The notes beneath the pieces are model-generated. The model saw nothing but the letters and a program-made list of their open reading frames with translations, had not been told where the DNA came from and ran no database searches. A DNA stretch of 64,000 nucleotides from Eledone cirrhosa (lineage: Eukaryota), in NCBI GenBank assembly GCA_964016885.1, contig OZ024742.1, positions 52,204,001-52,268,000 on the forward strand, in the 5' to 3' direction. Shown here piece after piece: positions 1,545 through 61,882 of this stretch. Position 1 is the stretch's first letter. Each line of letters starts with the position of its first letter. The position numbers were made by a program, and so were the translations under genes.

Positions 1545-1583
<39 letters not shown>

Positions 1584-1706
1584 GGAGGTGAGTTTTATTG
1601 TAGTACAATAAAGCAATGCAGATATCGGATAAGAAGCACTCTACAGTTTGTGGGACTGGAGTATGCATAATATAAGATCAAAAGATGGTTAAAGGAGTTC
1701 AATATA

Positions 1707-1773
1707 TTTTATTATGCGCATTTCAAAAACAAACATCATCAAACAATAATATTTGTGTTTTCATCAGATAAAA
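1707..1773 (-). ncRNA. Type I hammerhead ribozyme (mirror of 4782-4848)
   Basis: Reverse complement reads TTTTAT-CTGATGA-[stem II]-GAAA-TGCGCA-TA-ATAAAA. Confidence 0.85.
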
Positions 1774-3011
1774 CAGGAGAACATGATATGAAGGCTAAAA
1801 AAACACTTGTTGATAGTGCAGTTTTAAATCAACATATGAAAAGTGGTTTTAGATTGATGTGTGATATTGGGAAAAATATTTTATTTAGAGAGGGGGGGAG
1901 AGAAAAGGATGAAAAGGGAAGGAGATGAGAGGGAGAGATGGGTGATAGAGAGAAAGAGATAGTTTTTATAACAGAGAGGAGATATATTTTATATAGAGGG
2001 GTTGAAAGCCGTTGGAAGATACTGTATAAATTAAAAATTTTTGAAAATTAACGAAGGGAGGATATGTGCGAGGAAAAAATATATTATATTTAGGGAGGGG
2101 TGGGGGTGGAAAGGATGAAAAAAAGGGGAGGAGATGAGAGTGAAGGTGGAAAGGGAGAGATGGGTGATAGAGAGAAAGAGATAGTTTTTATAACTGAGAA
2201 AAAGATATAATGTTTTAATATAGAGAGGTTGGGAACCGTTGGAAGATAATGTATAAATTAAAGGAATTTGAAAATTAACGAAGGGAAATTATGTATGGAG
2301 ATAGAGAGAAAAAAATAACGAAGGGAGATTATGTATGGAGATAGAGAGAAAAAAAAATAATAATTGTGGGTGAATATTCAAAAGGAGAAATGTAGGAATC
2401 TTAAAATTAGCAAAGAGAAAATGTTTATGTATAGGATTTGAGAAAAATAATGTGAAGTTAAAGTTTTTATATTGAATTCATATGTATTAATAATGAGTTC
2501 GTTGATGGGGAGAAAAAAATAATAATAAATTAAGGATGAAATTGAGATTAAAAAGATTTATGATAGAGAGAAAAAAAAATAATAATGATTGCGGATGAAT
2601 ACTCAAAATGTCAAAAACAAATGTTATTGTTTTACGAAGAGATATAATGAGGGTGATGAGTAAACGGGTATTATAGAGTGTATAATGCCCTTTAAAGTAA
2701 GGTAGATGGGTATATTTTAAAGAATATATGAGTATATATTAAAAAAAAATATATAATAATAAATTAAGGATGAAATTGAGATTAAAAAGATTTATGATAG
2801 AGGGAAAAAAAATAATAATGATTGCGGATGAATATTCAAAATGTTAAAAACAAATGTTATTGTTTTACGAGAAGATAGGATGAGGTAAATGAATAAACGA
2901 GTACTATAGAGTGTATAATGCCCTTTAAAGTAAGGTAGATGGGTATATTTTAAAGAGGTGTATGTATATGTGCCTTTGAGAAAAGATTCTAAATTGATAA
3001 AGAATTGAATA

Positions 3012-3266
3012 TTAACTGTATACTTTGTGAAAAGTTCTATGGAATTTATGGAGGCAGATGGAAAACAAATCCGAGCGTCTATTTATTATGGATTCTAGGT
3101 TAGAGATAATGGTAAATTTTTCATTTAGGCAGAGATTACAGATTTTAGATAGAGAACTGTTCAAGTACGAGGATGCAGAAGAAATCTTTTTCCAAAAGAT
3201 GTTATATTTAATGTTTTTGTCTTTTAAGGACCATATGAGTTCTGAGAGAGCAGTGTTAGTTCTTTT
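3012..3266 (-). pseudogene. PLE GIY-YIG endonuclease C-terminal fragment (mirror copy)
   Basis: Reverse complement of the 3279-3533 part of the open frame. Confidence 0.75.
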
Positions 3267-3533
3267 AAGTTTGTATTTGAAAGAACTAACACTGCTCTCT
3301 CAGAACTCATATGGTCCTTAAAAGACAAAAACATTAAATATAACATCTTTTGGAAAAAGATTTCTTCTGCATCCTCGTACTTGAACAGTTCTCTATCTAA
3401 AATCTGTAATCTCTGCCTAAATGAAAAATTTACCATTATCTCTAACCTAGAATCCATAATAAATAGACGCTCGGATTTGTTTTCCATCTGCCTCCATAAA
3501 TTCCATAGAACTTTTCACAAAGTATACAGTTAA
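3267..3533 (+). pseudogene. PLE GIY-YIG endonuclease C-terminal fragment, 5'-truncated but open
   Basis: Hand translation: KFVFERTNTALSELIWSLKDKNIKYNIFWKKISSASSYLNSSLSKICNLCLNEKFTIISNLESIINRRSDLFSICLHKFHRTFHKVYS*. The LS..IW.LKD..I.Y.I.W / CNLC..EK / R..L...C.H pattern resembles PLE endonuclease C-termini. Confidence 0.8.
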
Positions 3534-4781
3534 TATTCAATTCTTTATCAATTTAGAATCTTTTCTCAAAGGCACATATACATACACCTCTTTAAAATAT
3601 ACCCATCTACCTTACTTTAAAGGGCATTATACACTCTATAGTACTCGTTTATTCATTTACCTCATCCTATCTTCTCGTAAAACAATAACATTTGTTTTTG
3701 ACATTTTGAATATTCATCCGCAATCATTATTATTTTTTTTTTTTTTTTTTCCCTCTATCATAAATCTTTTTAATCTCAATTTCATCCTTAATTTATTATT
3801 ATATATTTTTTTTTAATATATACTCATATATTCTTTAAAATATACCCATCTACCTTACTTTAAAGGGCATTATACACTCTATAATACCCGTTTACTCATC
3901 ACCCTCATTATATCTCTTCGTAAAACAATAACATTTGTTTTTGACATTTTGAGTATTCATCCGCAATCATTATTATTTTTTTTTCTCTCTATCATAAATC
4001 TTTTTAATCTCAATTTCATCCTTAATTTATTATTATTTTTTTCTCCCCATCAACGAACTCATTATTAATACATATGAATTCAATATAAAAACTTTAACTT
4101 CACATTATTTTTCTCAAATCCTATACATAAACATTTTCTCTTTGCTAATTTTAAGATTCCTACATTTCTCCTTTTGAATATTCACCCACAATTATTATTT
4201 TTTTTTCTCTCTATCTCCATACATAATCTCCCTTCGTTATTTTTTTCTCTCTATCTCCATACATAATTTCCCTTCGTTAATTTTCAAATTCCTTTAATTT
4301 ATACATTATCTTCCAACGGTTCCCAACCTCTCTATATTAAAACATTATATCTTTTTCTCAGTTATAAAAACTATCTCTTTCTCTCTATCACCCATCTCTC
4401 CCTTTCCACCTTCACTCTCATCTCCTCCCCTTTTTTTCATCCTTTCCACCCCCACCCCTCCCTAAATATAATATATTTTTTCCTCGCACATATCCTCCCT
4501 TCGTTAATTTTCAAAAATTTTTAATTTATACAGTATCTTCCAACGGCTTTCAACCCCTCTATATAAAATATATCTCCTCTCTGTTATAAAAACTATCTCT
4601 TTCTCTCTATCACCCATCTCTCCCTCTCATCTCCTTCCCTTTTCATCCTTTTCTCTCCCCCCCTCTCTAAATAAAATATTTTTCCCAATATCACACATCA
4701 ATCTAAAACCACTTTTCATATGTTGATTTAAAACTGCACTATCAACAAGTGTTTTTTTAGCCTTCATATCATGTTCTCCTG

Positions 4782-4848
4782 TTTTATCTGATGAAAACAC
4801 AAATATTATTGTTTGATGATGTTTGTTTTTGAAATGCGCATAATAAAA
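4782..4848 (+). ncRNA. Type I hammerhead ribozyme with long G-U-rich stem II
   Basis: Stem I TTTTAT/ATAAAA; core CTGATGA 4788-4794; stem II includes CAAATATTATT/GATGATGTTTG; GAAA 4831-4834; palindromic stem III TGCGCA; predicted cleavage after AUA (4842). Confidence 0.85.
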
Positions 4849-4880
4849 TATATTGAACTCCTTTAACCATCTTTTGATCT

Positions 4881-4938
<58 letters not shown>

Positions 4939-5199
4939 GGAAAAAATGAAACGAAATTTCATTTCTCACTCTTAGTACGGCTGTTACTTAAATATAAGTA
5001 TGTATACATACATATATGTATACCGACGTACAGTAGTATGTATATATATATACATACATGCACACACATATATATATGTACTTATGGATTCACCGAACAT
5101 TTATTATAATGCTCGGTGTGTTTGTAAACAAACAACCCGAATTAAGCCGTACAATGTCTAGCAACCATCGTTGCTCATTTGTTCAACACTGACAAAGGA

Positions 5200-5242
5200 A
5201 CGCTGTACTAGTTTCAAGCTTATTAGCTATCGTCAGCAACGT
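5200..5242 (-). ncRNA. Minimal type I hammerhead ribozyme
   Basis: Reverse complement reads ACGTTG-CTGACGA-TAGCTAATAAGCTT-GAAA-CTAG-TA-CAGCGT. Confidence 0.85.
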
Positions 5243-5478
5243 ATACCTTCCTGCCAGATGGTTGAACGTCTGAAAGTATATACTTTCCCTATGCATATTA
5301 ACGGCTTAGTAGCCTAATTTGTATATCGAGTGAATTAATGGGCCGTTTATCGGCCGTTTATCGTTTTCGGTACCCCGGCCCATTAACTTACACGATATGC
5401 AAATTAGGCTGCTAAGCCGTTAATATGCATAAGGAAAGTATATACTTTCAGACGTTCAACCATCTGGCAGGAAGGTAT

Positions 5479-5521
5479 ACGTTGCTGACGATAGCTAATA
5501 AGCTTGAAACTACTACAGCGT
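5479..5521 (+). ncRNA. Minimal type I hammerhead ribozyme, stem III mutated (CTAC)
   Basis: ACGTTG-CTGACGA-TAGCTAATAAGCTT-GAAA-CTAC-TA-CAGCGT. Confidence 0.7.
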
Positions 5522-5915
5522 TCCTTTGTCAGTGTTGAACAAATGAACAACGATGGTTGCTAGACACTGTACGGCTTAATACGGGTTGTTTGTTTACAAA
5601 CACACCGAGCATTATAATAATTGTTCTGTGAATCCATACGTACATATATATATATGTGTGCATGTATGTATATATATATATATATATATACTACTGTACG
5701 TCTGTATACATATATGTATGTACGTATACATACTTATATATAAGTAACAGCCGTACTAAGAGTGAGCAATGAAATTTCGTTTCATTTTTTCCGTTAATCG
5801 TTTTCGGAACCCCGGATGATTTACTCACTCGATATGTAAATTAGGCTGCTCAGCCGTTAATATGCATGAGGAAAGTATATACTTTCAGACGTTCAACCAT
5901 TTGGCAGAAAGGTAT

Positions 5916-5958
5916 ACGTTGCTGACGATAGCTAATAAGCTTGAAACTAGTACAGCGT
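5916..5958 (+). ncRNA. Minimal type I hammerhead ribozyme
   Basis: ACGTTG-CTGACGA-TAGCTAATAAGCTT-GAAA-CTAG-TA-CAGCGT; palindromic stem III. Confidence 0.85.
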
Positions 5959-6223
5959 TCCTTTGTCAGCGTTGAACAAATGAGCAACGATGGTTGCTAG
6001 ACATTGTACGGCTTAATTCGGGTTGTTTGTTTACAAACACACCGAGCATTATCATAAATGTTCGGTGAATCCATAAGTACATATATATATGTGTGTGCAT
6101 GTATGTATATATATATACATACTACTGTACGTCGGTATACATATATGTATGTACGTATACATACTTATATTTAAGTAACAGCCGTACTAAGAGTGAGAAA
6201 TGAAATTTCGTTTCATTTTTTCC

Positions 6224-6289
<66 letters not shown>

Positions 6290-6894: not shown

Positions 6895-6898
<4 letters not shown>

Positions 6899-7060
6899 AA
6901 CGAGTAGAACCCCGACGGCTGAGCTCAAGCAGTTTCGACGGCTAATTCTGGAGCTCAGCCGTCGCGGTTCTACTTGTTCTTATTACCCACTCTGCTACCC
7001 TAAGTATTGAGTACTTTGGTGCGTTATGGTCCATCTGGTTCCTTACCACATTTCCTTCGT

Positions 7061-7062
<2 letters not shown>
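6895..7062 (+). mobile_element. Family B fold-back, copy 2
   Basis: Same termini and tail as 482-620, opposite orientation; (TA)n flanks. Confidence 0.85.
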
Positions 7063-7141
<79 letters not shown>

Positions 7142-9065: not shown

Positions 9066-9282
9066 TCATTACAACGTGTTACTTTGACAAATTTTAAGCA
9101 CAAACAGAAACAGGACTTACAAATATATACAGCATACAAAAGATAGCACTACTAGTCATTGCACACATATTACGAAAGGTACTATCAATACAATAGAAAC
9201 AGCATCAACAAAAACGTTACTGCTCATACCCAAGGCGCCCAGAGCTGTGCACAGTAAAGTAGTAATGATGTGCAATAAAAAA

Positions 9283-9440
9283 TAATTGTTTCTACTTTAA
9301 GCAGAGGGCCAGCAATTTGAAGGGGGTGTCGATTAAAACGATCGCAGTGTATCACTGGTACATTATTTTATCGACCCCGTAAGGGTGAAAGGGAAAATTA
9401 ACCTCGGCGAGATTTTAACTCAGAACATAGATGGCCATAA
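9283..9440 (-). mobile_element. tRNA-derived SINE fragment
   Basis: Reverse complement of the family core CCTTTCATCCTTACGGGGTCGATAAAAT and the GAGTT-AAA B-box-like region seen at 35622. Confidence 0.75.
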
Positions 9441-9489
9441 CTCGTTGCTGCAAGTAAGGGTTGGCACGAATACCAAATTGAAGCGAGTT

Positions 9490-9935
9490 TAACCTTTGCC
9501 CCCCCCCCCCCATCCGTCTTCTTCTGATTACTAAATGCTGACGCTGACGCATTACTCCAAAAGCTCCTGGATTCTTGCACTTAATTCAGCCACACGATTT
9601 CCATCATTCGTGAACACGACCCCGAGATACTTGAACTTCTCTATCTGATTCATTGGAACTCCACTTACTTTTTGAGTGCACTGTGCAGGCTTCCATGAGA
9701 GTGTCTCAGTTTCCGCATCACTGATTTTCATTCCAGCCGTGCAGCACTCGGCATCGAACCTATTGAGTGAAAGATGGACATCATTTTCTGCCGAATTAAG
9801 TAACACCATGTCGTCTGCAAATTCCAGCCGACTGGTTTTACATCTACTAGTCATGATACCACTACCAACTGCGCATGTCAATTCTGTTCATATAAATAAT
9901 GAACAGGAACGGTGACAGTATGCACCCTTGGCGGA
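9490..9935 (-). pseudogene. RTE-like LINE reverse transcriptase fragment
   Basis: ORF 9552-9881: LEFADDMVLL..GMKIS..QIEKFKYLGVVFTNDG. Confidence 0.8.
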
Positions 9936-10024
9936 GTCTGACTCTCAATTTGTTTCAAACAACTTAAAACAATCAAATCTCAGTGAGCGATGTACAGAAT
10001 CGTCCCGAGAGACCCAACAATAAA

Positions 10025-10485
10025 AATAATAGTTGTTTCTACTTTAGGCACAAGGACAGCAATTTTGAAGGCGAGAGGAAAGACGATTAAATCGACTCCA
10101 GTACGTTACAGGTACTTTATTTTATCGACGCCGTAAGGATGAAATGCAAAGCTAACCTCGGCGGGATTTGAATTCAGAACGTCAAGAGTCGTAGCTTTAT
10201 GCCACGAATCATGATGTCCAGCTCTCTACCGATACTGCCAAACCACGGTTTTAACAACAGATATATTAATAAAAACAATAATGGTTTCTGATTTAGGCTC
10301 AAGGCCAGCAATTTTGGGAAAATGTGGAACGTTGATTAAGTTCACTCCCAGTGCGTTACTTTATTTTATCAACCGCGTAAGGATGAAAGGCAAATCTAAC
10401 CTCAGCAGGATTTGATCTCAGAATGTAAACGGCGGTAGCTCTATGCTACGAAGCAGCGTATCTGATGTCCTACCGATACTTCCAA
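10025..10485 (-). mobile_element. Two tandem tRNA-derived SINE copies (~10025-10250, ~10275-10485)
   Basis: TTTTATCGAC..CGTAAGGATGAAA..AACCTCGGCGGGATTTGAA..CAGAA core present twice. Confidence 0.8.
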
Positions 10486-12225: not shown

Positions 12226-12290
<65 letters not shown>

Positions 12291-12300
12291 AACCAGTAAG

Positions 12301-12394
12301 ACCCCGACAGCTGAGCTCAAGCCGTTTCGACGGCTAATTCTGGACTAAATGAAAATTTATCCTGGTATTTAAATAGCCGATCTTCTCAAGGGGT
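12301..12394 (-). ncRNA. Type I hammerhead ribozyme, U3-A8 variant (mirror copy)
   Basis: Reverse complement of 12806-12899. Confidence 0.75.
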
Positions 12395-12805
12395 AATTCC
12401 ATATATGGTCAAAGTGATTGTCAAAAATCAGTAGTAATTCTGTGGTTGCAAATTAGTAGGGGAGATGGTGGCTAAACCTGCCAGTAGGAGAAAGAGGGGA
12501 GGGGGTGGAGTAGCCCCAATCAAGCGTTTGTAGTGCCAGCTACAGCTGGGCATGAGGTCAAAGAAGATACAGGGGAGGGGGGGGGTCGGAACGGTAGGTA
12601 GAACAATGGGGGGTAGAAATAATACTGAGAGTGAAGAAAAGCAAATAAGTGTAGCTGTAGCTGGCACTACAAACGCTTGATTGGGGCTACTCCACCCCCT
12701 CCCCTCTTTCTCCTACTGGCAGGTTTAGCCACCATCTCCCCTACTAATTTGCAACCACAGAATTACTACTGATTTTTGACAATCACTTTGACCATATATG
12801 GAATT

Positions 12806-12899
12806 ACCCCTTGAGAAGATCGGCTATTTAAATACCAGGATAAATTTTCATTTAGTCCAGAATTAGCCGTCGAAACGGCTTGAGCTCAGCTGTCGGGGT
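12806..12899 (+). ncRNA. Type I hammerhead ribozyme, U3-A8 variant, long stems II and III
   Basis: Stem I ACCCC/GGGGT; core TTGAGAA; stem II GA(T)CGGCTA/TAGCCGTC; GAAA 12872-12875; stem III CGGC-T-TGAGCTCA-GCTG; GUC triplet. Confidence 0.75.
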
Positions 12900-13014
12900 C
12901 TTACTGGTTCCTATTACCCACTCTACTACCTCAAGTATTGAGTACTTTGGTGCGTTATGGTCCACCTGGTTCCTTACCACATTTCCTTCGTTATATATAT
13001 ATATATATATATAT

Positions 13015-15318: not shown

Positions 15319-16640
<1,322 letters not shown>

Positions 16641-16705: not shown

Positions 16706-17774
16706 GTGAGGTTTTTTTACAAAATGAAAAATAACCGAGGTGTCCTACACGAGTGAAGGTATAGAGAGAAAAAGATGAAACCGAAAATGCAACTACAGTC
16801 TTATTTTTTTTAAATATATATATTTATTTGGTTCCTTCACCGTTTTCGCAGTTCTTCTGCTTTTCAAAAGTAGAATTGAGATGGAAGGTCTGTGGTTTTT
16901 CTCACATCTGGTTGGTCTGTGAATGTTACTTGTTTTATATGGAAAAAAGTGGCTCGAAACGTCAGGTTTTTAGAGAAGTAATTTGATTGGTTGGTCAATA
17001 AGTATAATACATGTCGCGCCAGTTCGCGTTACAATGTTCTTCAAAGTTGGTTGATGCAGTCACGTGAATAAGCACATCAGCTTTCGTGCCAGTTTGTTTG
17101 AATTTCTTTTTACTTAAAAAAAGGGGTTCGCGAAAGGTTTTTTTTATAAATGTAATTTGATTGGTTATAAATGAAATTATGATTCTCACGTGAACAAGTT
17201 CATTAATTTCATGCCCGTATTTGGGAATTTATTCTGTAGCCTTTTAGAGAATTGTATGACAAACAAAAGATAATAGTCAAGAGAAGTAGGATGGGAGAAT
17301 TGCTCTGGTTCAGTGAATATGTCTGGTTCGCTGGGGTGTCAGAATTCAGACTTTCTATTGAAATAAAGAAAGTAGAGAGATATGAATGTTTATTTGTGTG
17401 TGTGTGTGTGTGTGTGTGAGTGTGTAGGAAGATGATTCAATTAGTAGAAATGGGGGAGGGAGTTGTGTGTGTGTGTATATGGGTGTCATGTGTGTGTGTG
17501 TTGGAGTATGTTAAGGTGGAGAGAATATATATATTTTGTGTGTGTGTATGTGTGTAGGAAATTGATTCTATTAGTAGAAATGGGGGAGGGAGTTGTGGGT
17601 GTTTGAGGGCGGGGTGTTATGTGTGTGTGTATGGGTGTTATGTGTGTGTGGGAGTATGGTTAGCATGTTAAGATGAAGAGAATATATATGTTGTGTGTGT
17701 GGGGGGGGGGTGTAGGAAAATTATTCCGTTAGTAGAAATATTTTTGAATGAACTTATTTATTCGTATGTGTTCC

Positions 17775-19128
17775 AATCCCACACCAATACGGACTAGAAG
17801 CAATAGGATTCTGGCTAGAGAAATATCCCAATGAGATATCTGGCAGAATAGAAAAAAGCTTCATCACCGAGGGATTAATATTTATCTTGCAGAACAACGT
17901 TTTTGATTTCGATGGCAGTACTTACATGCAAATATCGGGGACTGCGATGCGTACAAAAGCCGCTCCAACTTATGCCAACTTAGTCATGGCATACTTAGAA
18001 GTCTAGATATATAAACAGTCCAAATCAAAATACGGATTGAACTTTCACAAATATTTATCAGAGAAATGGAAACGCTACTTGGATGATTGTCTCATTCTTT
18101 GGTCCCACACACTCGACGAACTGAATGATTTCAAAAATTTAATTAACGGCATCAATAACCACATCCAATTCACAATGGAATACAGCCAAGATCAACTCCC
18201 ATTTCTGGACATATTAATCTTAAAAAAAGATACAAATATTGAAACTGACATACACTACAAAGCAACAGATTCCAAACAATACCTGCTATTCACCTCCAAC
18301 CATCCAAAGCACACGAAGACGAACATTCCTTTTAACCTAGCAAGAAGAATTTGCCAATTGTCTCCAATTATGGAACGCGAAATAAAAACTTCAAGAATTA
18401 AAGGAAATTCTACTCGAAAGACAGTACCCAACATTACTAATAAATAATGGAATAGAAAGGGCTAAAGCAATAGGCATTGATGAATTACGAAAACAGAAAC
18501 AAATTCAAGGTACGTCCAATATTCTATCGTATATCTCAACACACAGCCCAAGAAATGCGAAAGCTTACAACACTATTCACAAGAACATCCCACTATTGAA
18601 ACAAGACCTAAGAATGAAAAAAAGCCCTTGAAACACAAAATAATCAAAAGCAAAAGACAACCGAAATCACTGAAAACATTACTCACCAATGCCAAATTAC
18701 CTACCACAAACCCACAACCAACTGTCAAAAAATGTGGGCACTCTAATTGTGGAACCTGCACTCACCTCATTGAAGGCAACACGTATACATTTCAATCAGG
18801 ACAAACTTTTGCTGTAAAAGAATCACTTCACTTGCTCATCAAAAAATCTTCTTTATGCCATTAAATGTTAAGGATGCAATGAAGATTATATAGGACAAAC
18901 TAAACTCACACTCAGAAACAGAATGACAGTTCATCGCCAACAATTACGAGATCCAGCCACGAGACAGATACTACTAAGCGCACATCTAGACATATGCGCA
19001 AGTAATAAGACACCCAAATTCCAAGTCTTCCCATTTTACCTTTGCGCAACAATACAACAGAACAAATACGAATAAATAAGGAAAATATGTTTATTCAAAA
19101 ATATAGACCAGCATTAAATATCGTTTAA
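17775..19128 (+). pseudogene. PLE RT + Cys linker + GIY-YIG endonuclease, frameshifted
   Basis: GTAMRTKAAPTYANLVMAYLE, WKRYLDDC, IQFTME, LPFLDI, SNHPKH; linker KKCGHSNCGTC; endonuclease LYAIKC..CNEDYIGQTKLTLRNRMTVH. Confidence 0.9.
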
Positions 19129-20507
19129 CATGCTAACCATCCAAACAGACACATACACACACACATAACACCTTTTACTTTAGAAAATAAAAACCCGAAC
19201 TAAATGAACCTTAACATACGTTTACGCAGACAATACAACAGAACAAATACGAATAAATAAGGAAAATATATTCATTCAAAAATATTTCTACTAACGGAAT
19301 CATCCCCCCCCCCACACACTCTCACAAAATATATATTCTCTTCATCTTAACATGCTAACCATACTCCCGCACACACACATAACACCCATACACACACACA
19401 TCACACCCCCACCAAAATACACACACAACTCCCTCCCCCATTGTAACTAATAGAGTCACTTTCCTACACACATACACACACATAAAATATATATATTCTC
19501 TCCACCTTAACATACTCCCGCACACACACACCATAACATCCATATACACACACACACACAACCCCCTCCCCCATTTCTACTAATAGAATCATCTTCCTAC
19601 ACACACACACTCATACACACACAATTAAACATACAAATCTCTACTTTCTTTATTTCAATAGAAAGTCTGAATTCTGACACCCCAGCGAGCCAGCCATATT
19701 CACTGAACCAGAACAATTCTCCCATCCCATTTCTCTTGACCATTATCTTATGTTTGTCATAAAATTCTCTAAAGGGCTACAAAATAAATTCCCAAATGCG
19801 GGCCCGAAATTCAATGAACATGTTCACGTGAGAGTCATAATTTCATTTATAACCAATCAAATTACATTTAGTAAAAAAAAAGCCTTCGTGAGCCACTTTT
19901 TTTAAAGTAAAAAGAAATTCAAACAAACTGACGCGAAAGCTGATGTGCTTATTCACTTGACAACATCAACTAACCAAACTTCACTCATATATGAAAAAAC
20001 AACCTGCCATATTCACTGAACCAGAACAATACCTCCCATCCCTTTCTTTTGACCATTATCTTTTGTTTGTCATAAAATTCTCTAAAAGGCTACAAAATAA
20101 ATTCCCAGATACGGGCCCGAAATTTAATGAACTTATTCATGTGACAGCCATAATTTCATTTAAAACCAATCAAATTTCATTTATAAAAAAAGCCTTCGTG
20201 AGCCCCTTTTTAAGTAAAAAGAAATTCAAACAAACTGGAGCGAAAGCTGATATGCGTATTCACGTGACTGCATCAAACAACCAAACTTCACTCATATATG
20301 AAAAAACAACCTGAGCCCCCCCCCCCCCCTTGTTTGAAGAACTTTGTAACGCGAACTGGCGCGAAATTTATTATACTTATTGACCAACCAATCAAATTAC
20401 TTCTCTAAAAACGTGGCGTCTCGAGCCACTTTTTTCCATATAAAACAAGTAACATTCAAAGACCAACCAGATGTGAGAAAAACCACAGACCCTCCATCTC
20501 AACTCTA

Positions 20508-20543
20508 CTTTTGAAAAGCTGGAGAACTGCGAAACCGGTAAAG
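20508..20543 (+). ncRNA. Minimal type I HHR, U3-A8 variant, in the 3' pLTR (decayed mirror at 16835-16870)
   Basis: CTT-TTGAAAA-GCTG.GAGAA.CTGC-GAAA-CCGG-TA-AAG (one stem II mismatch). Confidence 0.7.
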
Positions 20544-20622
20544 GAACCAAATAAATATATATATATATTTTTTAAATAAGACTCCAGTTGCATTTTCGAT
20601 TTCATCTTTTTCTCTCTCTCTC

Positions 20623-20739
<117 letters not shown>

Positions 20740-20886
20740 ATATATATATATATAAGCAAAGAGATATTTAATTTGCTGGTTATTCAACAAATTTATTTAT
20801 AACAGATTCGAAGCACTCTACAGATTTTCTGGAGTATAATATCAATGATATTAATAAATGGAAACTATATTTATGAAACCATATTT

Positions 20887-20945
20887 ATTTTATTATACAT
20901 ATTTCAAGGGTACCACAATTTTGGTACGTTCTCATCAGATAAAAT
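20887..20945 (-). ncRNA. Type I hammerhead ribozyme
   Basis: Reverse complement reads ATTTTAT-CTGATGA-GAAC.GTACCAAAATTGTGGTAC.CCTT-GAAA-TATGTA-TA-ATAAAAT. Confidence 0.8.
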
Positions 20946-22690
20946 ACAAAATTTGTTTTTTAAATGGTGATATACCCAAGAAACCAGACCTTATCGGTTC
21001 AGGTTCAGTTTGGATAGTGAAAGAAAAATTTCAATTCTATAGGATGAATATGTAAATGAGGGTGGAACGTAAGGCTGAAAAAGAGATCGTTATATTTAGA
21101 CGCTAGGTAAATTTAAATAATCATTAGGATAATTTATATATGGTAAAACATTTTCTAGATCAGTTTCACATCTAATTTGGTACTTAAAAAACAATAATAT
21201 TGACTATTCAATCTCTTGGGGAACGATTTAGAAAGCGCCCGCATACCGAAATATGACTCTGTCAAGAATTTGAAATTTGTGTATTACAGAAATACTTACC
21301 TGCCTATTAATAAAAAGAATGACTTTCAGAAGTATCTTTAATCTATAGAATATATTTCACTTGTTTACATTTTATGTCTTCACTATGTTTTTGTCGAGAT
21401 TTTGTGGTGATTTTAAAATTATATTTTTCTTTTTATCTTATATTTTTCAAATGATATTCTTTTTCAAATGATATTCTTTTTAATGGTTTTCAATGATATT
21501 TTGAAATATATATTTTTTTTTATAATTTTGATAATGTTTCTAAATATACTTATGATGTCTGTAATAATATTTGTTTCACTGTATAGAATTTAACACATGC
21601 ATTGATGTAGATAATACTATCTAAATGCATATATAAAAGAATTATCATCTTTGAAAATATCTAATATAAAATACTTTATAATCATATACAAAATAATATA
21701 TTAAATTTTTCTACTTATATTCCACATATATCTTAATTGTATATTTCTTTAAAAATAAATTCTAGAATTAAATGACAAATTTAACAATTATTTTAACTAA
21801 GAAACATTGGATTTATCTTTTCCTTTATAATGTAACACGCTTAAACATTCCTTCTACGTAACAACTAAATTTTACATAAATATTTATTTTCGTTGACTTA
21901 ATAAATCTTTTGTGAATCTTGATTGAAATATCTGATGTACGAAATAATCTTCTCAAATAAAATTTATAACTACGTCCATTTCTTAACTAGAATATTGAAA
22001 ATGTAAACACAAAATTCTTCGTAACCCTTAACATATATAAAAATGTATCTATCTAGTTAAAATAACAACATATATACTCACCAAAATATTTATATAAATA
22101 CATATAAATAGTTCGTTGTAATATAATAAACTAAAATATACTTACAACCTTAAAATACACTTATAAATATTATCTATATAATATTATAACTCATGATTTG
22201 AATACATCCAATAATTTGTTGTATATCTCAATTTTTTTTTAATTTTAAGTTGGTATTCTACCACTTCAACACATTCTTAACTCTCATATTATTTTCTATA
22301 GATACTATGAAAATATGTGATTGTATAATTAAATAATTAAATATAATTATATCACTCCCTTTACACCATCACACATTTCATCTTAATAATAATAGTGTAT
22401 TTCTAACTATATTTTTTTCTTATATTCATTCTTTAAATTATCTTACACACTAATATTAATATTAACCTCACTTTTTTTTTTCTTTTCTTATTCGCCCATA
22501 TAAAAATGATCCTAATAATTATTTAAATTTACCTAGCGTCTAAATATAACGATCTTTTTTCAGCCTTACGTTTTCAGCATTTACATATTCATCCTACAGA
22601 TTTGAAATGTTTCTTTCACTATCCAAACTGACCCTGAACCGATAAGGTCTGGTTTCTCGGGTATGTCACCATTTATAAAACAAATTTTGT

Positions 22691-22749
22691 ATTTTATCTG
22701 ATGAGAGCGTACCAAAATGTTGGTACCCTTGAAATATATATAATAAAAT
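22691..22749 (+). ncRNA. Type I hammerhead ribozyme
   Basis: ATTTTAT-CTGATGA-GAGC.GTACCAA.AATG.TTGGTAC.CCTT-GAAA-TATATA-TA-ATAAAAT. Confidence 0.85.
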
Positions 22750-22801
22750 AATAAAATAAATATGGTTTTATAAATACTGTTTACATTTATTAATATCATT
22801 G

Positions 22802-22830
<29 letters not shown>

Positions 22831-33454: not shown

Positions 33455-34836
33455 TAAGCAGAAGCGACATTCAATTTGTTGGTAATTCATCAAATATAAA
33501 TGTTTATAACTGATTCAGCGCACTCTACAAATATTTTTCTGGAGTATAATATACAATGATATTAAATAAATGGAAACTATATTTATTCTATTATATATAT
33601 TTCAACGGTACCAAAATTTTGGTAGGCTATCATTAGATGAAATACGAAGTGTGTTTTATAAATTTTGACATAACCAAGGTGTATAGGAATATTATAAATT
33701 AAAAATAGTTCTGAACGTGGAATTTTGGCGATGTTTGCAAGAAGAAAATAATTCTGTTCTGAGAATAATAGAGTTTTGACAGTTAATTATATAAAAGATT
33801 TCTTCGATACACAATTTACAGAATCTTGATAAAGCCATATTTCGGTATGCAGGTGCTTCGAAATCGTTCTCCAATATATTGAATAGTCTATATTGTTGTC
33901 TTTTAAATTCCAAATTAGATGTGAAAGTGAAACGATTGATCTTCGAAAAACACATTTTTCCTCTCTCTTTTTGTTATTCGAACCTTCACACATCTTTCGA
34001 CTAAAATAATGGATCTTACACAAAATAATATATAATTTTCTCTATATATTTTGGAGTAAATCATTCATCTAATTTAATGGTTAACAAACAAAATTGGAGT
34101 TATCTTTCCTTTCTTCATCGTTCAAACATAAACATATTATGTTTGATAATCTGTATAGCTTCGGTAAATTAACAATATTCTGAAAACATTTTCAATGTTG
34201 AATAAAATTTTTGAATCCACAAATTGTTCTACTCTCACAACTTGAACCACATATTTTTAAGTAAAATACAAAATCAACATCTTCGTAACTCATATTTGAT
34301 ATATAAACAACTAATAATTATAAATTATCTTTATTTTTATTTACATATAACCTATCGTAATGTAGTAAGATAAAAATAGTTACAACCATAAATCTTCATA
34401 TAATCTAATTGATTATATATACAATATTATAACTCATAATATAGGTAAATAAATTTTTTCCCCAAAATTAACGCAAATTCTAGCTCTTCATCCTTTCTCT
34501 TCTTTCCTACGCATAAAATTAACTTAACATAATTATTTAAATTTTCCATAGCGTCTAAAATAACGGGGTTTTTTTCAGCCCTTTTACCTTAACCTCATTT
34601 GCATACTCATCTTAATAATTTGAAATATCTTACTTTTCTTTTCTTATCCCTTCACTATCCAGGGATAACTTGAACCGTTAAGGTATATTCTCCTTGGTTA
34701 TGTCAAAATTTATAAAACACACTTCGTATTTTATCTGATGATAGCGTACCAAAATTTTGGAACCCTTGAAATATATATAATAGAATAAATATGGTTTTAT
34801 AAATATAGTTTCCATTTATTTAATATCATTGTATAT
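33455..34836. mobile_element. PLE family A copy 3: arms 33549-33679 / 34692-34836, left tail, endonuclease remnant on minus strand (33692-33950)
   Basis: SLSHLIWNLKDNNIDYSIYW / APAYRNMALSRFCKLCIEE..LRTELFSSCKH; 34050-34690 (+) is homologous to the 3' region of copy 2. Confidence 0.85.
34728..34786 (+). ncRNA. Type I hammerhead ribozyme (mirror at 33585-33643 has a disrupted CTAATGA core)
   Basis: ATTTTAT-CTGATGA-TAGC.GTACCAAAATTTTGGAAC.CCTT-GAAA-TATATA-TA-ATAGAAT. Confidence 0.8.
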
Positions 34837-38467: not shown

Positions 38468-38835
38468 TAATGATTTCTACTTTAGGCAAAGGGACAGCAG
38501 ATTTGGGCAAGGGAAAATGGATTAAATCAACTGCAGAACTTAACAGGTAGCTTTTTTGTTGATCCCTGATGTATGAAAGTCAAATTTATCATCGGCGGTA
38601 GTTGAACTCAAAATGTAAACCGCCTGAGCAAATACAGCCGCGCATTTGTCCGACGATCTACTGATACTTCCAAACACCGTCTAGTGCAAAGACGGTGTTT
38701 GGAAGTATCAGTAGATCGTCGGACAAATGCGCGGCTGTATTTGCTCAGGCGGTTTACATTTTGAGTTCAACTACCGCCGATGATAAATTTGACTTTCATA
38801 CATCAGGGACCAACAAAAAAGCTACCTGTTAAGTT
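38468..38835. repeat. Decayed SINE (-) with a near-perfect 146-bp inverted duplication (38537-38682 / 38690-38835)
   Basis: One mismatch seen between arms; 7-nt spacer AGTGCAA. Confidence 0.9.
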
Positions 38836-43339: not shown

Positions 43340-45912
43340 GTTCTTTGAGTCTCAGTCATTGATGTTAGTTAACTGGAAAGTTTGTTGAAATGAATATCAA
43401 GCCACTAGCTGCAGCCTCAGATATTCAGGACGTATCGGAGGGTACTTGATATTCCCAGCAAGCATGCCTTTTGAAGCGTTCCAAAAAGTGTGGCGGGGCC
43501 AATTTTCTTTAACCGTCCCTGGAAACTTTTTGAGATAGTACCTAGTGCGCCTATGACAATCGGAACCACTTTGACTTCATGGCAGTTCCAAATCCTTTTT
43601 ACCTCCCACTTTAAGTCCTGGTATCGGTTAATTTTCTCCCTCTCCTTCTCTTGCACTCTCGTGTCGATCCTGCACAGTGGGCTAGCCTCCTCCTTGTAAA
43701 TATGGTTTTTCAACCATTTCGTTTTGAGGGCCTGCTCTTGCGCAGCCATTAACATTCCTTCTGTAGCCTTTTAAGGTTTCCTTTTTCAACCAGTTCCATG
43801 TCTGTGGATCTCTGAATTCAGTCTTCTCAAAGAAGGTAATATGAAGGGATTTTTCATGAAGGCTGCTCTTTCTCCTTGTTGTTATTTCCTCCTTGGACAT
43901 CCCCTGGTCTATTGTCCTCTCCTTCAGTACAGCTTTGAGCATTGGCTCCTTATTATCAGTCACGTATTTGTGTAGGTTGTTTTTCCCCATCTGAACACAG
44001 TCCTCTATGCTGATAAGACCTCTTCCACCTTCAGATCTCCTTAAGTAGAGTCTATCGACATCACTCCTCTTGTGGAACATGTTGTAGATAGTCAATAGCT
44101 TCCTAGTCTTCCTATCCATTTCTTTTTGTTCAGCAACATTCCATCTCAGAATTGCCGCACTGTACCTAATAATAGACACAGCTCGGGAATTTACTGCACT
44201 TATGGCATTCCTACTGTTCAGATGTGACTTTAATACTCCCCTTACTCTCCGAATGTATTCAGATCTTATCAATTCCTTCATTTTTTTGTTCTTGATGTCA
44301 TTCAGCCTCCAGAACACCCAAATACTTGTATCCTTCTTCAGTGTCAATTTCCTTTATCATCTCACCTGTTGGTACCTGGATTACCTTGCTTCTGCTCAAT
44401 TTACCCCTCTTCATCACAAGGACTCCACACTTACTAATACCAAATTCCATACATATATAATTGCTGAAAATACGGACAGTGTCAACAAGCACATCCAACT
44501 CCTTCTCACTCTTCCCGAAGAGCTTAAGATCGTCCATGAGGAGTAAGTGATTGATGGTAAGCTCTCCCTTTTCCAACTTGTATCCTGCTCTCACTTTTCG
44601 CAGTATAATGGTCAGGGGCATCAGGGCAAGGACAAATAAGAGAGGGGACAGACTATCACCCTGGAAGATACCTCTCTTGATCTTCACGCCTCCCGAGGAT
44701 TCTCCAGCTGATGTTAACTCTGTCTTCCAGGACTTCATACTTTTGCCCAACAACTGTCTGATGTTATCTGCTACCTTGAAGATCTCTAGGCTTTTGGAGA
44801 TCCAAGAATGAGGCACCATGTCAAATGTCTTTTTGTAGTCTATCCATCCCATGGCAAGACCAGTGTGTCTCCTCTTGCAATACCTCATTACCATCTTATC
44901 AATAAGTAACTGGTCCTTTGTACCACGGGACTTCTTTCGGCATCCTTTCTGTTCGTCCGGTAACAAGTTGTTTGTGTGGAGGTGATGGTAGATTTCCTCA
45001 GACATAATGCTTGTCAACAGTTTCCACATTACAGACAGATATGTGATTGGTCTATAGTTGGTAACATCATTACCCTTGATTCGGTCTTTCATTACCAGAA
45101 CTGTGATACATTTTGTGAACCACTCTGGTACCTCACCTGACATCAAGCAGTCATTGAACATAGTTGTCAGTTTCGGGTGGAGGGATGTTATATTTTTAAT
45201 CCAATACCCCTGCACACCATCTGGGCCTGGTGATTTCCAGTTGGTTAGTTTTTTGGCCTGTCCCTTAAGAGTTTCAACTGTGATAATCACATCAGTTTCT
45301 TGCTGTGCCTGTTCACTAATCTCTTTTTGTACTGTCTCAATCCACACTGCCTGGTCATTATGTTTAACACCCTGCTCCCATATTCCTCTCCAGAATGTCT
45401 TAGTTTGTTCCGCTTCAGGGATCAATTCGCTGCTTCTTTCTTTCCCTTCAAGCTGTCCAAACAGCCTCTTCTGGTTGTTCTCAAACATGCGGTTCTGTCT
45501 ATACTGACTGACTCTGTTCTCGTATCGCCTAGTTTTTGCACTCTTTGCTACAATGCGTTGCTTCAGTTCCTCTATGATAATATTTAGCTTTTTCCTCCTA
45601 GTTTTGTACTTTATTTCCAGTCTATTTTTAGTGTCTATGTTTTTTAGTGTCCCATTCAGTAGGGACTCAAGCTTTCGAATGTCATTTTTTCATTTACCTG
45701 ATTTGACCATTCAGTCGTTTCTTCCACCAAGGTTCTGATCTTTCTTGTTTGTTGTTTCCTCTCGCTTTTATACCAAGTAATTTCCTCTCAGCATTTTCTG
45801 TTGCTTTGAGGATATTGTTGCACTAGTGAAGGCTCCTCGCCTCAAGGTATGGGATGACTTTGTTTACCTTAGCTGTTGTTTCTTTTAACTTTTTCTTTTA
45901 ACTTTTTTCCTG
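43340..45912 (-). mobile_element. R4/Dong-like element copy 1, decayed, 5'-truncated, internal deletion at ~43667
   Basis: ORF pieces 43417-43755, 43682-44347 and 44298-45488 homologous to the 1130-aa ORF; 3' end at (TAA)n. Confidence 0.9.
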
Positions 45913-45917
45913 AAAAA

Positions 45918-48050
45918 GATCTTTTTTCTTTGTCCACAACCACCAGGTCAGGTCTATTGTGTTCCAGTTACTTGTCCGTCTGTATCCTAAAATCTCACAG
46001 CACCTTCACCTGATCGTTCTCCATCACCGCCTCTGGCTTAGGCTCATACCATTTCTCAGAATGTGGTAAACTGTTTACTTTGCACAGGTGCCAGTGGATC
46101 ACCCTGCCCATCACATCATGTCTCCAGCCCTTATAGTGGGTCTGGGCTAGGTGTTTACACTAGGATACAATGTGAGCCACAGTCTCCTCTCTCTCTCCAC
46201 AGATCCTGCACAGTGGGCTAGCTTCCTCCTTGTAAATATGGTGTTTCAACCACTTCGTTTTGAGGGCCTGCTCCTGCGCAGCCATTAACATTCCTTCTGT
46301 AGCCTTTTTGAGGTATCCTCTTCTCAACCAGTTCCATGTCTGTGGATCTCTAAATTCAGTTTTCTCAAAGAAGGTACTATGAAGGGATTTTCCCTGAAGG
46401 CTGCTCTTTCTCCTTTTTGTTATTTCCTCCTTGGACATCCCCTGGTCTATTGTCCCCTCCTTCAGTACAGTTCTGAGCATTGGCTCCTTACTATCAGTCA
46501 CGTATTTGTGTAGGTTGTTTTTCTCCATCTGAACACAGTCCTCTATGCTGATAAGACCTCTTCCACCCTCAGATCTCCTTAGGTAGAGTCTATCGACATC
46601 ACTCCTCTTGTGGAACATGTTGTAGATAGTCAATAACTTCCTAGTCTTCCTATCCATTTCTTTTTGTTCAACAACATTCCATCTCAGAATTCCCGCACTG
46701 TACCTAATAATAGACACAGCTGGGGAATTTACTGCGCTTATGGCATTTCTGCTGTTCAGATGTGACTTCAATACGCTCCTTACTCTCCGAATGTATTCAG
46801 TTCTTAACAATTCCTTCATTTTTTTGTTCTTTATGCCATCAGCCTCCAGAACGCCCAAATACTTGTATCCTTCCTCAGAGTCAATTTCCTTTATCATCTC
46901 ACCTGTTGGTATCTGGGTTCCGTTACTTCTGCTCAACCTACCCCTGCTCATCACAATGACTCCACACTTACTAATACCAAACTGTATACAAATATCACTG
47001 CTGAAAATACAGACAGTGTCAACAAGCACATCCAACTCCTTCTCACTCTTACCGAAGAGCTTAAGATCGTCCATGAAGAGGAGGTGATTGATGTTAAGCT
47101 CTCCCTTTGCCTACTTGTATCCTGCTCTCACTTTTCGCAGCATAATGGTCAGGGGCATCAGGGCAAGGACAAACAACAGAGGGGACAAACAATCTCCCTG
47201 GAAGATACTTCTCTTGATCTTCACGCTTCCCAAGGATTCTCCAGTTGATGTCAACTCTGTTTCCCAGGACCTCATACTCCTGCCCAGCAACTGTCTGATG
47301 TTATCTGCCACCTTGAAGATCTCCAGGCTTTTGGTGATCCAAAAATGAGGCACCATGTCTGTAGTCTATCCATCCCATGGCAAGATCAGTGTGTCTCCTC
47401 CTGCAATTCCCCATTACCATCTTATCAATAAGTAACTGGTCCTTTGTACCACGTGACTTCTTTCGTCATCCTTTCTGTTCGTCCGGTAACAAGTTGTCTG
47501 TGTGTAGGTGATGGTAGATTTCCTCAGACACAATGCTCGTCAACAGTTTCCACATTACGGACAGACATGTGGTAGGTCTATAGTTGGTAACATCATTACC
47601 CTTGATTTGGTCTTTCATTATCAGAACTGTGGTACCTTTTGTCAAGCACTCTGGTACCTCACCTGACATCAAGCAGTCATTGAACATGGTTGTCAGTTTC
47701 GGGTGGAGGGATGTTAAATTTTTAATCCAATACCCCTGCACACCACCTGGGTCTGGTGATTTCCAGTTGGTTAGTTTTTTGGCCTGCCTCTTAAGAGTTT
47801 CAACTGTGATACTCAAATCAGTTTGTTGGTTTGCCTGCTCACCGATCTCCCTCTGTACTGTCTCAATCCACCCTGCCTGGTCATTATGTCTAACATCCTG
47901 CTCCCATATTCCTCTCCAGAATGTTTTAGTTTGTTCCGCCTCAGAGATCAAGTCGTTGCCTCTTTCTTTCCCCTCAAGCTGTCCAAACAGCATCTTCTGG
48001 TTGTTGTCTAACATGCGGTTCTGTCTGGTTATTGTCGAACATGCGGTTCT
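45918..48050 (-). mobile_element. R4/Dong-like element copy 2, truncated at both ends
   Basis: ORF pieces 46160-47074, 47111-47356 and 47466-48014; fused to copy 1 without a 3' UTR; short duplication at the 5' junction. Confidence 0.9.
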
Positions 48051-48058
48051 GATTATTA

Positions 48059-48095
<37 letters not shown>

Positions 48096-48105
48096 GTTAT
48101 TGTTA

Positions 48106-51100
48106 TTCCTTGAATCTCAGTCATTGATGTTGGTTAACTGGAAAGTCCGTTGGATTGAATATCAAGCCACTACCTGCAGCCTCAGATATTCAGGACGTAT
48201 CGGAGGGTTCTTGCTGTTCCAAGCAAGCATGCCTTTTGAAGCGTTCCAAAAAGCGTGAAGGGGCCAATTTTCTTCAACCATCCCTGGAAACCTTTGGAGA
48301 TAGTCCCCAGTGCGCCTATGACAATCGGGATCACTTTGATTTCATGGCAGTTCCAAATCCTTTTCACCTCCCACTTTAGGTCCTGGTATCGGTTAATTTT
48401 CTCCCTCTCCTTCTCTTGCACTCTCGTGTCGAACGGGCAGGCCACATCCACAATCAGGCACGATCTTTTTCTTTGTCCACAACCACCAGGTCAGGTCTAT
48501 TGTGTTCCAGTTTTTTGTCCGTCTGTATCCTAAAATCCCACAGCACCTTCACCTGACTGTTCTCCATCACCGCCTCTGGCCTATGCTCATACCATTTCTC
48601 AGAATGTGGTAGATTGTTTACTTTGCACAGGTGCCAGTGGATCACCCTGCCCATCACATCGTGTCTCCAGCCCTTATAGTGGGTCTGGGCTAGGTGTTTA
48701 CACTCGGACACAATGTGAGCCACAGTCTCCTCTCTCTCTCCACAGATCCTGCACAGTGGGCTAGCCTCCTCCTTGTAGATATGGTGCTTCAACCACTTCG
48801 TTTTGAGGGCCTGCTCCTGCGCAGCCATTAGCATTCCTTCTGTAGCCTTTTTGAGGTCTCCTCTTCTCAACCAGTTCCATGTCTGTGGATCTCTAAATTC
48901 AGTTTTCTCAAAGAAGGTACTATGAAGGGATTTTCCCTTAAGGATGCTCTTCCTCCTTGATGTTATTTCCTCCTTGGACATCCCCTGGCCTACTGTCCCC
49001 TCCTTCAATACAGTTCTGAGCATTGGCTCCTTACTATAGGTCACGTATTTGTATAGGTTGTTTTTCTCCATCTGAACACAGTCCTCTATGCTGATAAGAC
49101 CTCTTCCACCCTCAGATCTCCTTAGGTAGAGTCTATCGACATCACTCCTCTTGTGGAACATGTTGTAGATAGTCAATAGCTTCCTAGTCTTCCTATCCAT
49201 TTCTTTTTGTTCAGCAACATTCCATCTCAGAATTCCCGCACTGTACCTAATAATAGACACAGCTCGGGAATTTACTGCGCTTATGGCATTTCTGCTGTTC
49301 AGATGTGACTTCAATACGCTCCTTACTCTCCGAATGTATTCAGTTCTTAACAATTCCTTCATTTTTTTGTTCTTTATGCCATCAGCCTCCAGAACGCCCA
49401 AATACTTGTATCCTTCCTCAGAGTCAATTTCCTTTATCATCTCACCTATTGGTATCTGGATCCCGTTACTTCTGCTCAACCTAGCCCTCTTCATCACAAT
49501 GACTCCACATTTACCAATACCAAACTGCATACATATATCACTGCTGAAAATACGGACAGTGTCAACAAGCACATCCAACTCCTTCTCACTTTTCCCGAAG
49601 AGCTTAAGATCGTCCATGAAGAGGAGGTGATTGATGGTAAGCTCTCCCCTTCCCAACTTGTATCCTGCTCTCACTTTTCGCAGCATAATGGTCAAGGGCA
49701 TCAGGGCAAGGACAAACAACAGAGGGGACAGGCTATCTCCCTGGAAGATACCTCTCTTGATCTTCACGCTTCCCAAGGATACTCCAGTTGATGTCAACTC
49801 TGTCTCCCAGGACCCCATACTCCTGCCCAGCAACTGTCTGATGTTATCTGCCACCCTGAAGATCTCCAGGCTTTTGGTGATCCAGGAATGAGGCACCATG
49901 TCAAATGCCTTTCTGTAGTCTATCCATCCCATGGCAAGATCAGTGTGTCTCCTCCTGCAATTCCCCATTACCATCTTATCAATAAGCAACTGGTCCTTTG
50001 TACCACGTGACTTCTTTCGGCATCCTTTCTGTTCGTCCGGTAACAAGTTGTTTGTGTGGAGGTGATGGTAGATTTCCTCAGACACAATGCTCGTCAACAG
50101 TTTCCACATTACGGGCAGACATGTGATAGGTCTATAGTTGGTAACATCATTACCCTTGATTCGGTCTTTCATTATCAGAACTGTGGTACCCTTTGTCAAC
50201 CACTCTGGCACCTCACCCGACACCAAGCAGTCATTGAACATGGCCGTCAGCTTCGGGTGGAGGGATGTTAAATGTTTAATCCAATACCCCTGCACACCAT
50301 ATGGGCCTGGTGATTTCCAGTTGGTTAGTTTTTTGGCTTGCCCCTTAAGAGTTTCAACTGTGATACTCAAATCAGTCTGTTGTTGTGCCTGCTCACCGAT
50401 CTCCCTCTGTACTGTCTCAATCCACCCTGCCTGGGCATTGTGTCTAACATCCTGCTCCCATATTCCTCTGCAGAATGTTTTAGCTTGTTCCGCCCCAGGG
50501 ACCAAGTCGTTGCCTCTTTCTTTCCCTTCAAGCTGTCCAAACAGCATCTTCTGGTTGTTGTCGAACATGCGGTTCTGTTTATACTGACTGACTCTGTTCT
50601 CGTATCGCCTGATTTTTGCACTCTTTGCTACAATGCGTTGCTTCAATTCCTCTATGATAATATTTAGCTTTTTACTCCTAGTTTTGTATTTTATTTCCAG
50701 TCTATTTTTAGTGCCTATGTTTTTTAGTGTCCCATTCAGTAGTGACTCAAGCTTTCCTATGTCATTTCTCATTTCCCCGATTTGCCCACTCAGTCGCTTC
50801 TTCCACCACGGCTCTGCTCTTTCTTGTCTGTTGTTTCCTCTCGCTTTTATACCAAGTAGTTTCCTCACCGTATTTGCTGTTGCTTTGAGGATATTGTTGC
50901 ACTGGTGAAGGCTCCTCGCCTCAAGGTATGGGATGACTTTGTTTACCTTAGCTGTTGTTTCTTTTAACTTTTTCCTGTCTACAAATCTTAGGTTCATAGG
51001 TCTCCCACTATCATTGTTCAATTCATCTACCACTAAATTTAGGATGTCAACCGAATCTTGTCCTAGCCCGTCAGCATTCATCTCCTCAGTGGCCGTATCT

Positions 51101-51882: not shown

Positions 51883-51893
<11 letters not shown>
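48106..51893 (-). mobile_element. R4/Dong-like element copy 3, near full length, one frameshift in the RLE domain (~48470)
   Basis: 1039-aa plus 89-aa ORFs nearly identical to copy 5; (TAA)n on both sides. Confidence 0.95.
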
Positions 51894-51981
<88 letters not shown>

Positions 51982-54723: not shown

Positions 54724-54749
54724 TTATTATTATTATTATTATTGTTGTT

Positions 54750-61848: not shown

Positions 61849-61882
61849 GTGGTCTTTCCCATCTTTTCCACTCCTTTTCAAC

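Follow-up and report, generated by a model that had tools for sequence, protein, structure and literature searches.

A young head-to-head palindrome of Penelope-like element copies in Eledone cirrhosa and the junction rules of its family

A palindrome inside a (TA)n tract

We analyzed a 64,000-nucleotide stretch of the Eledone cirrhosa genome (contig OZ024742.1, positions 52,204,001 to 52,268,000 of the forward strand), hereafter the window, in which positions are counted from the first letter. The palindrome in it is a head-to-head pair of 5'-truncated young copies of a Hydra-clade Penelope-like element (PLE), lying inside a (TA)n tract that flanks it at 1521-1580 on the left and at 4889-4935 on the right. 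The left arm, on the minus strand (1581-3284), corresponds to positions 2211-3910 of the element and the right arm, on the plus strand (3280-4888), to positions 2230-3824, where the element is numbered after a natural 3,910-nt unit found elsewhere in the genome (L035:2759-6668). Five nucleotides of microhomology (3280-3284) are common to both arms at the head-to-head junction. A palindrome of about 3.2 kb had been predicted from the sequence, and self-BLAST showed 99.1% identity over 3,232 columns between 1667 and 4888. When the arms were compared with each other, the mirrored parts ran from 1667 to 3268 and from 3277 to 4888 around a loop of 8 nt (3269-3276), and they differed by a single substitution (2845/3700) and by a poly-T that is 10 nt longer in the right arm (3733-3742). 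The predicted span of 1581-4888 thus holds for 1667-4888, but 1581-1666 is unmirrored and is the 86-nt tail of the element (element 3825-3910, minus strand), present on the left arm only.

Compared with the L035 unit the left arm has 8 substitutions in 1,694 aligned nt and the right arm 7 in 1,594, all 7 of which are also found in the left arm, and the two arms differ from six other copies by 1-9 substitutions per ~1,600 nt. Together with an intact parent ORF in the same genome this supports the prediction of a young head-to-head PLE insertion. An assembly artefact at the locus is unlikely. The arms are nearly identical, as a fold-back read or a misassembly would make them, and the junction was bridged by no contig in four public runs and was absent among the strand-switch joints listed from raw Illumina reads of two other samples, which says little about an insertion that is young and possibly polymorphic. 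Against an artefact, the symmetry ends at the element ends, the flanks differ, the tail sits on one arm and the arms differ at two places. The same rules were also found at dozens of loci with different centres, and in the Illumina reads of the two other samples ends of either type continue into (AT)n and four strand-switch joints are seen. We therefore give an artefactual origin next to no weight.

The original prediction placed the C-terminus of a GIY-YIG endonuclease at the centre of the palindrome. What lies there is the end of an intact 800-aa reverse transcriptase (RT)-endonuclease, but these last 83-90 residues come without the GIY and YIG motifs, R704, H708 and a start codon. On the minus strand the C-terminal 90 codons (aa 711-800) occupy 3012-3284 and include CxxC, E765, N778 and CxH, and on the plus strand the C-terminal 83 codons (aa 718-800) occupy 3282-3533. 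The ATG-less frame with these motifs is open on both strands as predicted, from stop to stop at 3246-3533 (+) and 3012-3299 (−). It had been described as a plus-strand frame at 3267-3533 mirrored on the minus strand; both are open, but the fuller frame is that of the minus strand, which is identical to the full ORF over residues 710-800, whereas the plus frame is native from 3282 only (residues 718-800) and its codons upstream of this point are junction sequence. The two mirror ORFs (stop to stop 3031-3321 on the plus and 3224-3514 on the minus strand) are antisense to the element frame, and the plus copy is without a Pfam match, which agrees with their description as antisense shadows. A Pfam scan of the 88-aa window peptide, which had been proposed as a check, returned no family. 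Because GIY, YIG and the conserved R704 and H708 are missing, the window peptide is, judged by its motifs, likely to be an inactive remnant rather than a functional nuclease, and given the few substitutions that separate it from the six other copies, its open frame reflects youth and not function. The window copy is probably inert cargo that has kept the putative promoter region, the hammerhead motif and the tail but no working protein.

Downstream of the frame on the plus strand, and mirrored on the left arm, is the expected ~1.25 kb of non-coding DNA (3534-4781), which contains direct repeats of 153 nt at 243-nt spacing and of 81 nt at 227-nt spacing. It is followed by a type I hammerhead ribozyme motif at 4782-4848 (+), with its core at 4788, a predicted cut after 4842 and a self-complementary stem III; the mirror copy is at 1707-1773 (−), with the core at 1767. 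The core, stems I and II and the cleavage triplet are all present. As an Rfam scan of the window gave no family at gathering score and the monomer fold was unremarkable (z −0.89, not better than shuffles), the call is one of motif and stem pairing. Both a hammerhead and (TA)n had been predicted to follow the non-coding DNA, and both are there, the former as a motif and the latter at both flanks.

The parent element and its clade

A search of the species' own genome (3.0 Gb) with window 3280-3560 gave 1,216 candidates, and the 40 that were scored all matched at ~100%. The recovery of a full-length RT-endonuclease copy, also proposed as a check, succeeded: an intact ORF of 800 aa, identical at three loci (L035, L021 and L024), is present in the same genome. 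Natural units of the element are 3,910 and 3,673 nt long. A search with the protein gave 421 relatives at E ≤1e-30. In an alignment of 36 proteins the RT motif YRDD, DKT (123-125), the CxCX5C linker, Y680, Y693-x-G695, R704 and H708 are conserved; C659, C661 and C667 are present in all 36, and C759, C762, E765, N778, C787 and H789 in 34. At 37-39 the protein has RWT, where aligned relatives mostly have RWR or RWK. A stretch rich in Asn between the RT and the endonuclease (L035:4640-4850, aa ~600-655) is reminiscent of the N-rich inserts in rotifer Penelopes.

Independent support for a GIY-YIG identity of the endonuclease domain is weak but consistent, by sequence as well as by model. Pfam found nothing meaningful in the entire 800-aa ORF, while the isolated endonuclease domain hit the Pfam GIY-YIG family at E 0.0026, under the curated cut-off, and 7 of 62 aligned proteins matched that family at E up to 0.01. 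A structural model of the domain had a pLDDT of 90.7, and its best Foldseek matches were T4 EndoII, I-TevI and Hpy188I at E 0.04-0.24, none reaching E 0.001; all three we take to be GIY-YIG nucleases. A PDB sequence search led by the endonuclease alignment gave weak RT matches only, and a retron RT profile matched the 800-aa protein at E 0.0016.

A single ORF with RT and GIY-YIG endonuclease (at L035, L021 and L024), together with partial tandems (pLTRs), inverted 5'-truncated copies and a tail, is the layout of an EN+ PLE. The endonuclease is C-terminal, unlike the N-terminal one of Naiad/Chlamys, and has a single Cys between Y680 and G695, so that the CCHH of Neptune, Nematis and Penelope/Poseidon is missing. 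The clade description in PMC8557442 gives as Hydra features a C-terminal GIY-YIG without CCHH, DKG changed to DKT, an RWK motif, a hammerhead and (TA)n targets. The element has the canonical hammerhead motif, all 36 tailed ends examined ran into an AT repeat and 47 of 49 tail-less ends continued in a TA repeat or a close variant of it. By these published diagnostic features we assign the element to the Hydra clade, which supports the predicted Hydra-type C-terminal endonuclease.

Hydra-clade PLEs as described in PMC8557442 have the same single ORF, DKT, an RWK-like motif, the CxCX5C linker and CxxC/CxH around E and N, and one of them, Penelope-13_HM, has an inverted 5'-truncated copy as here. 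The clade is already known in cephalopods through Hydra-1_Obim of Octopus bimaculoides (PMC8557442), whose N-terminal part, compared by eye, looks clearly homologous but whose hammerhead sequence differs; the element described here appears, from these proteins compared by eye, to be another cephalopod family beside it. The element differs from the clade as published in having RWT for RWK, in palindromes being its main insertion form, and in the length of its tail (86 nt against the 30-40 nt described for PLEs). It is also larger: Hydra-clade elements are generally <3 kb (2,507 bp for Hydra-1_Obim; PMC8557442), a non-diagnostic tendency, and the 3.7-3.9 kb found here is due to the 1.25-kb 3' region with its internal repeats.

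Arms and junctions across the family

The 33-mer at the 3' end of the element has 7,917 exact copies in the genome and its reversed control 0. The first 100 matches fell into 62 loci, 61 of which were fetched, and 50 of the 61 were head-to-head; the palindrome is thus the usual insertion form of this family. Of the 48 head-to-head loci at which both ends could be typed, 46 had one tailed end (3910) and one tail-less end (3821-3830), with p 4e-12 against 50:50. The two exceptions (L055 and L070) represent one of each like-ended kind, and L024 is also like-ended. At that last locus two tandem copies form a near-perfect palindrome of 9 kb around a 4-nt centre; neither end has a tail, and the intact ORF is on one arm.

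Over a 165-nt segment in 47 loci the arms diverged by 0.38% within a locus and by 1.96% between loci, and a haplotype of five sites was common to both arms in 44 of the 47. We consider it probable that both cut strands of the target prime reverse transcription of sense RNA at two start sites and that the cDNA ends are then joined, all in one event. In such an event the endonuclease would cut (TA)n on both strands, one strand would prime at element 3910 and the other at 3824, giving one tailed and one tail-less arm, and both cDNAs would be copied from the same RNA or from sister RNAs of one source. The cDNAs would stop, often close together, or run to the capped 5' end of the RNA (3653), where each would be extended by a C opposite the cap, in many cases followed by an untemplated A. 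The two 3' ends would be joined through microhomology (the 5 nt at the window locus) or filler, and the second strands filled in. The 86-nt tail would accordingly be the segment between the two RT start sites. In vitro, a Poseidon PLE was reported to cut and extend both strands, with the tail lying between two start sites (PMC11167929). The start sites did not differ between the strands in that work, so the strict site pairing seen here is unexplained there; our guess is that it comes from a dimer holding one RNA, with strand displacement.

Matching arms could also arise from two separate insertions into one TA tract, or from a later inverted duplication followed by gene conversion between the arms. 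TA targeting is dense in the window, and one of the three loci with unmatched haplotypes, L079, does consist of two unrelated copies 2 kb apart, that is, of two separate insertions. Most centres, however, are without a TA tract, haplotypes match at 44 of 47 loci and end types are strictly paired. Six private variants were common to both arms of a locus, as gene conversion would have it, but 22 were on one arm only, so the arms are not strongly homogenised. We find this explanation hardly credible.

The arrangement of the junction centres was examined in 56 junctions from the sampled loci and those of the endonuclease search, after eight loci (L002, L022, L024, L035, L037, L038, L040 and L063) had been set aside because they were duplicates or contained tandems. 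The longer arm was the tail-less one at 26 junctions and the tailed one at 16, and at 14 both were of equal length. Filler bases were present in 25 of the 56; some long fillers (40-335 nt) are probably mis-parsed subfamily differences and make the count of longer arms less sharp. Of the 24 junctions that have no filler and whose ends are not both at the hot spot described below, 11 showed microhomology of at least 3 nt, against 6.5% in the null, and the arm ends were within 35 nt of each other in 10 of 27 sampled loci off the hot spot, against 1.3 by permutation. The window junction, with arm 5' ends at element 2211 and 2230, 19 nt apart, and its 5-nt microhomology, fits this close-ended class. 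Its longer arm is the tailed one, and it lies on a natural mini-hairpin. Some separate insertions share their truncation point on the element, exactly or almost so (L029 and the window at 2211, L027 and L022 at 2019-2021, L028 and L033 at 2100), which suggests preferred stall or RNA break sites and partly a bias of the search query.

These same features of the window locus, the longer tailed arm, the 19-nt offset, the 5 nt of inverted microhomology and the mini-hairpin, would suit a fold-back, in which priming at the tail end yields a cDNA that turns back at a small inverted repeat and serves as its own template before it is joined to the other target end at the TA-like 3824. Fold-back also accounts for identical arms and for close ends. 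It demands that the tailed arm always be the longer one, since a shorter tailed arm cannot be the copy of a longer tail-less arm, and it therefore fails family-wide on the 26 junctions with a longer tail-less arm. Offsets of hundreds to thousands of nucleotides in either direction are likewise unexplained by it. As a general route fold-back is largely refuted; it may apply at the window locus, but we regard it as an unlikely explanation of these palindromes.

Priming from both strands on a capped RNA is suggested by the hot spot at element 3653. Of 100 arm 5' ends, 35 were at 3651-3658, and about 1,690 palindromes genome-wide are centred there (1,688 in forward and 1,696 in reverse searches). 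The native base before 3653 is C. Loci at which both arms have a non-native G there number 130, against 6 with C and 1 with A in both. Among the first 50 listed, the G and the C of the cDNA side are mostly separated by AT, but also by nothing, by one base, by AA or by a longer or asymmetric spacer. Twenty double-G loci were fetched and 19 typed, and all 19 had one end of each type. Reverse transcriptases are known to add a templated C opposite an m7G cap and then an untemplated A. The non-native G therefore looks like a copied RNA cap, and two cDNAs ending in C or CA and joined end to end would give the observed spacers. From these bases we infer a capped sense RNA that starts at 3653, and two first-strand cDNAs of it; in the window the putative transcription start lies at 4718 (+), mirrored at 1837. 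A hairpin origin is disfavoured at double-G centres, since fold-back would there need loops of 0-2 nt without primer pairing.

The same hot spot bears on self-priming on an antisense RNA template, which was proposed for rotifer Penelope palindromes of the same head-to-head geometry (PMC3846280) and would also yield identical arms. The sharp stop at 3653 and the non-native G that both arms have on their sense side point to a capped sense template, and self-priming has the same tail problem as fold-back, as the shorter arm may carry the tail. We hold it to be very improbable here.

Tandem copies behave differently from palindrome arms on reaching 3653. We found 226 seamless tandem junctions, and in 40 tandem loci that were fetched, 17 upstream copies ended before 3653, 23 passed it and none stopped there. 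Stops at 3653 thus amounted to 0 of 23 on the second pass, as compared to 35 of 79 arms on the first (Fisher p 2.5e-5). Two other end points were considered and rejected. A cDNA stop at the hammerhead cut (3778) was not borne out by any pile-up, the first 50 listed of 159 centres near it being spread out, and 1 of 40 tandem copies began at 3779; full-length copies starting at the cap site numbered 0 of 23. As there is neither a stop at 3653 on the second pass nor a pile-up at the hammerhead cut, the long copies seem to come from a template without an end at either site, which would be either a circle closed by religation or an array of several units, as at L021/L022, that is read through. Circles have been reported for retrozymes (bioRxiv 10.64898/2026.07.22.740005). 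A wider reading, which we put forward tentatively and at somewhat less than an even chance, is that the family's junctions record the whole of PLE integration: a dimeric RT-endonuclease cuts both strands with one RT start site each, palindromes are the normal product, and two templates are used. The capped linear RNA would give only a ~430-bp MITE-like palindrome (the about 1,690 copies), and the endless template, most likely a hammerhead-made RNA circle, would give the ORF-bearing and tandem copies.

Comparison with known systems and neighbouring repeats

L1 twin priming likewise starts cDNA synthesis on the element RNA from each of the two target strands and joins the ends through microhomology. 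Twin priming inverts non-overlapping segments, whereas here the same segment is copied twice, giving an inverted duplication. The Poseidon PLE PAc of Anolis carolinensis resembles the present element as we model it in that both strands of AT-rich DNA are cut and extended in vitro and two internal RT starts bound the tail, hammerhead cleavage being dispensable (PMC11167929). It differs in belonging to another clade and in its starts, which fall within the beginning of the ORF, at most some tens of nucleotides from each other. That paper does not settle how the second strand is made and the ends are joined, does not validate what follows priming, and does not tie the two sites to the arms of inverted insertions. 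Penelope of Adineta vaga shares head-to-head inverted pLTRs, junction palindromes and a tail on one inverted pLTR (PMC3846280), but is of low copy number and was explained by antisense self-priming. Non-LTR retrozymes are, like the present element, related to pLTRs and hammerhead-bearing; they are non-coding, and rolling-circle copying has been proposed for them (bioRxiv 10.64898/2026.07.22.740005). They are tandem monomers, whereas the short class described here is a ~430-bp palindrome with arms that start at the putative cap site.

Published work already covers Hydra PLEs as well as inverted copies, tails and TA targeting (PMC8557442). The element itself is a variant within an established clade; what makes it interesting is a set of junction rules by which a mechanism still open can be tested, the origin of tandem and inverted PLE structures being named as an open task in PMC8557442. 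A literature search outside older PLE reviews and most subscription papers gave no report of paired end types, of a cap-like G on both arms or of double priming for PLE palindromes. The rules that separate the models can be counted: end types are paired, either arm can be the longer, a cap-like G may stand on both, and tandems do not stop at the cap site. With its intact 800-aa protein, its simple (TA)n target and its predicted positions for the RNA start and the two RT starts, the family also lends itself to direct work in vitro. Young palindromes number in the thousands in this 3-Gb genome; they are real, may be mistaken for assembly errors or MITEs, and are likely to be dsRNA sources and fragile sites.

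Several other repeats are found in the window. In the palindrome's TA tract, 4934-6228 holds a second, non-coding family of ~437-nt units, with one inverted and two tandem copies and hammerhead motifs at 5236 (−), 5485 (+) and 5922 (+). It has 2,772 candidates in the genome, others of which are likewise inverted or tandem, and looks like a retrozyme or a non-autonomous PLE. Older relatives of the same clade lie at 20835-22810 and 33574-34797, with degraded endonuclease C-termini (43-53% identity to the 800-aa ORF), related hammerhead motifs at 20938 (−), 22698 (+) and 34735 (+), and inverted ends. Further inverted repeats, with arms of 260-720 nt and in some cases next to TA tracts, are found at 12286-12914, 15640-16639, 16763-20617 and 38537-38835, the last being a near-perfect 300-nt palindrome, and a short repeat family in inverted arrangements adjoining TA tracts occurs at 479-619, 6897-7065 and 12286-12914. 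On the minus strand, 43682-58255 consists of about five related non-LTR retrotransposon copies in tandem, which we take to be R4/Dong-like; two of them have long ORFs (1,050 and 1,141 aa) with RT, CCHC and restriction-like endonuclease motifs. The element at 59851-63631, presumably L1/Tx1-like, has Gag-like, AP-endonuclease and RT frames and an in-frame stop at 62723-62725. Finally, 9277-10455 contains three copies of a SINE-like repeat, presumably of the octopus type.
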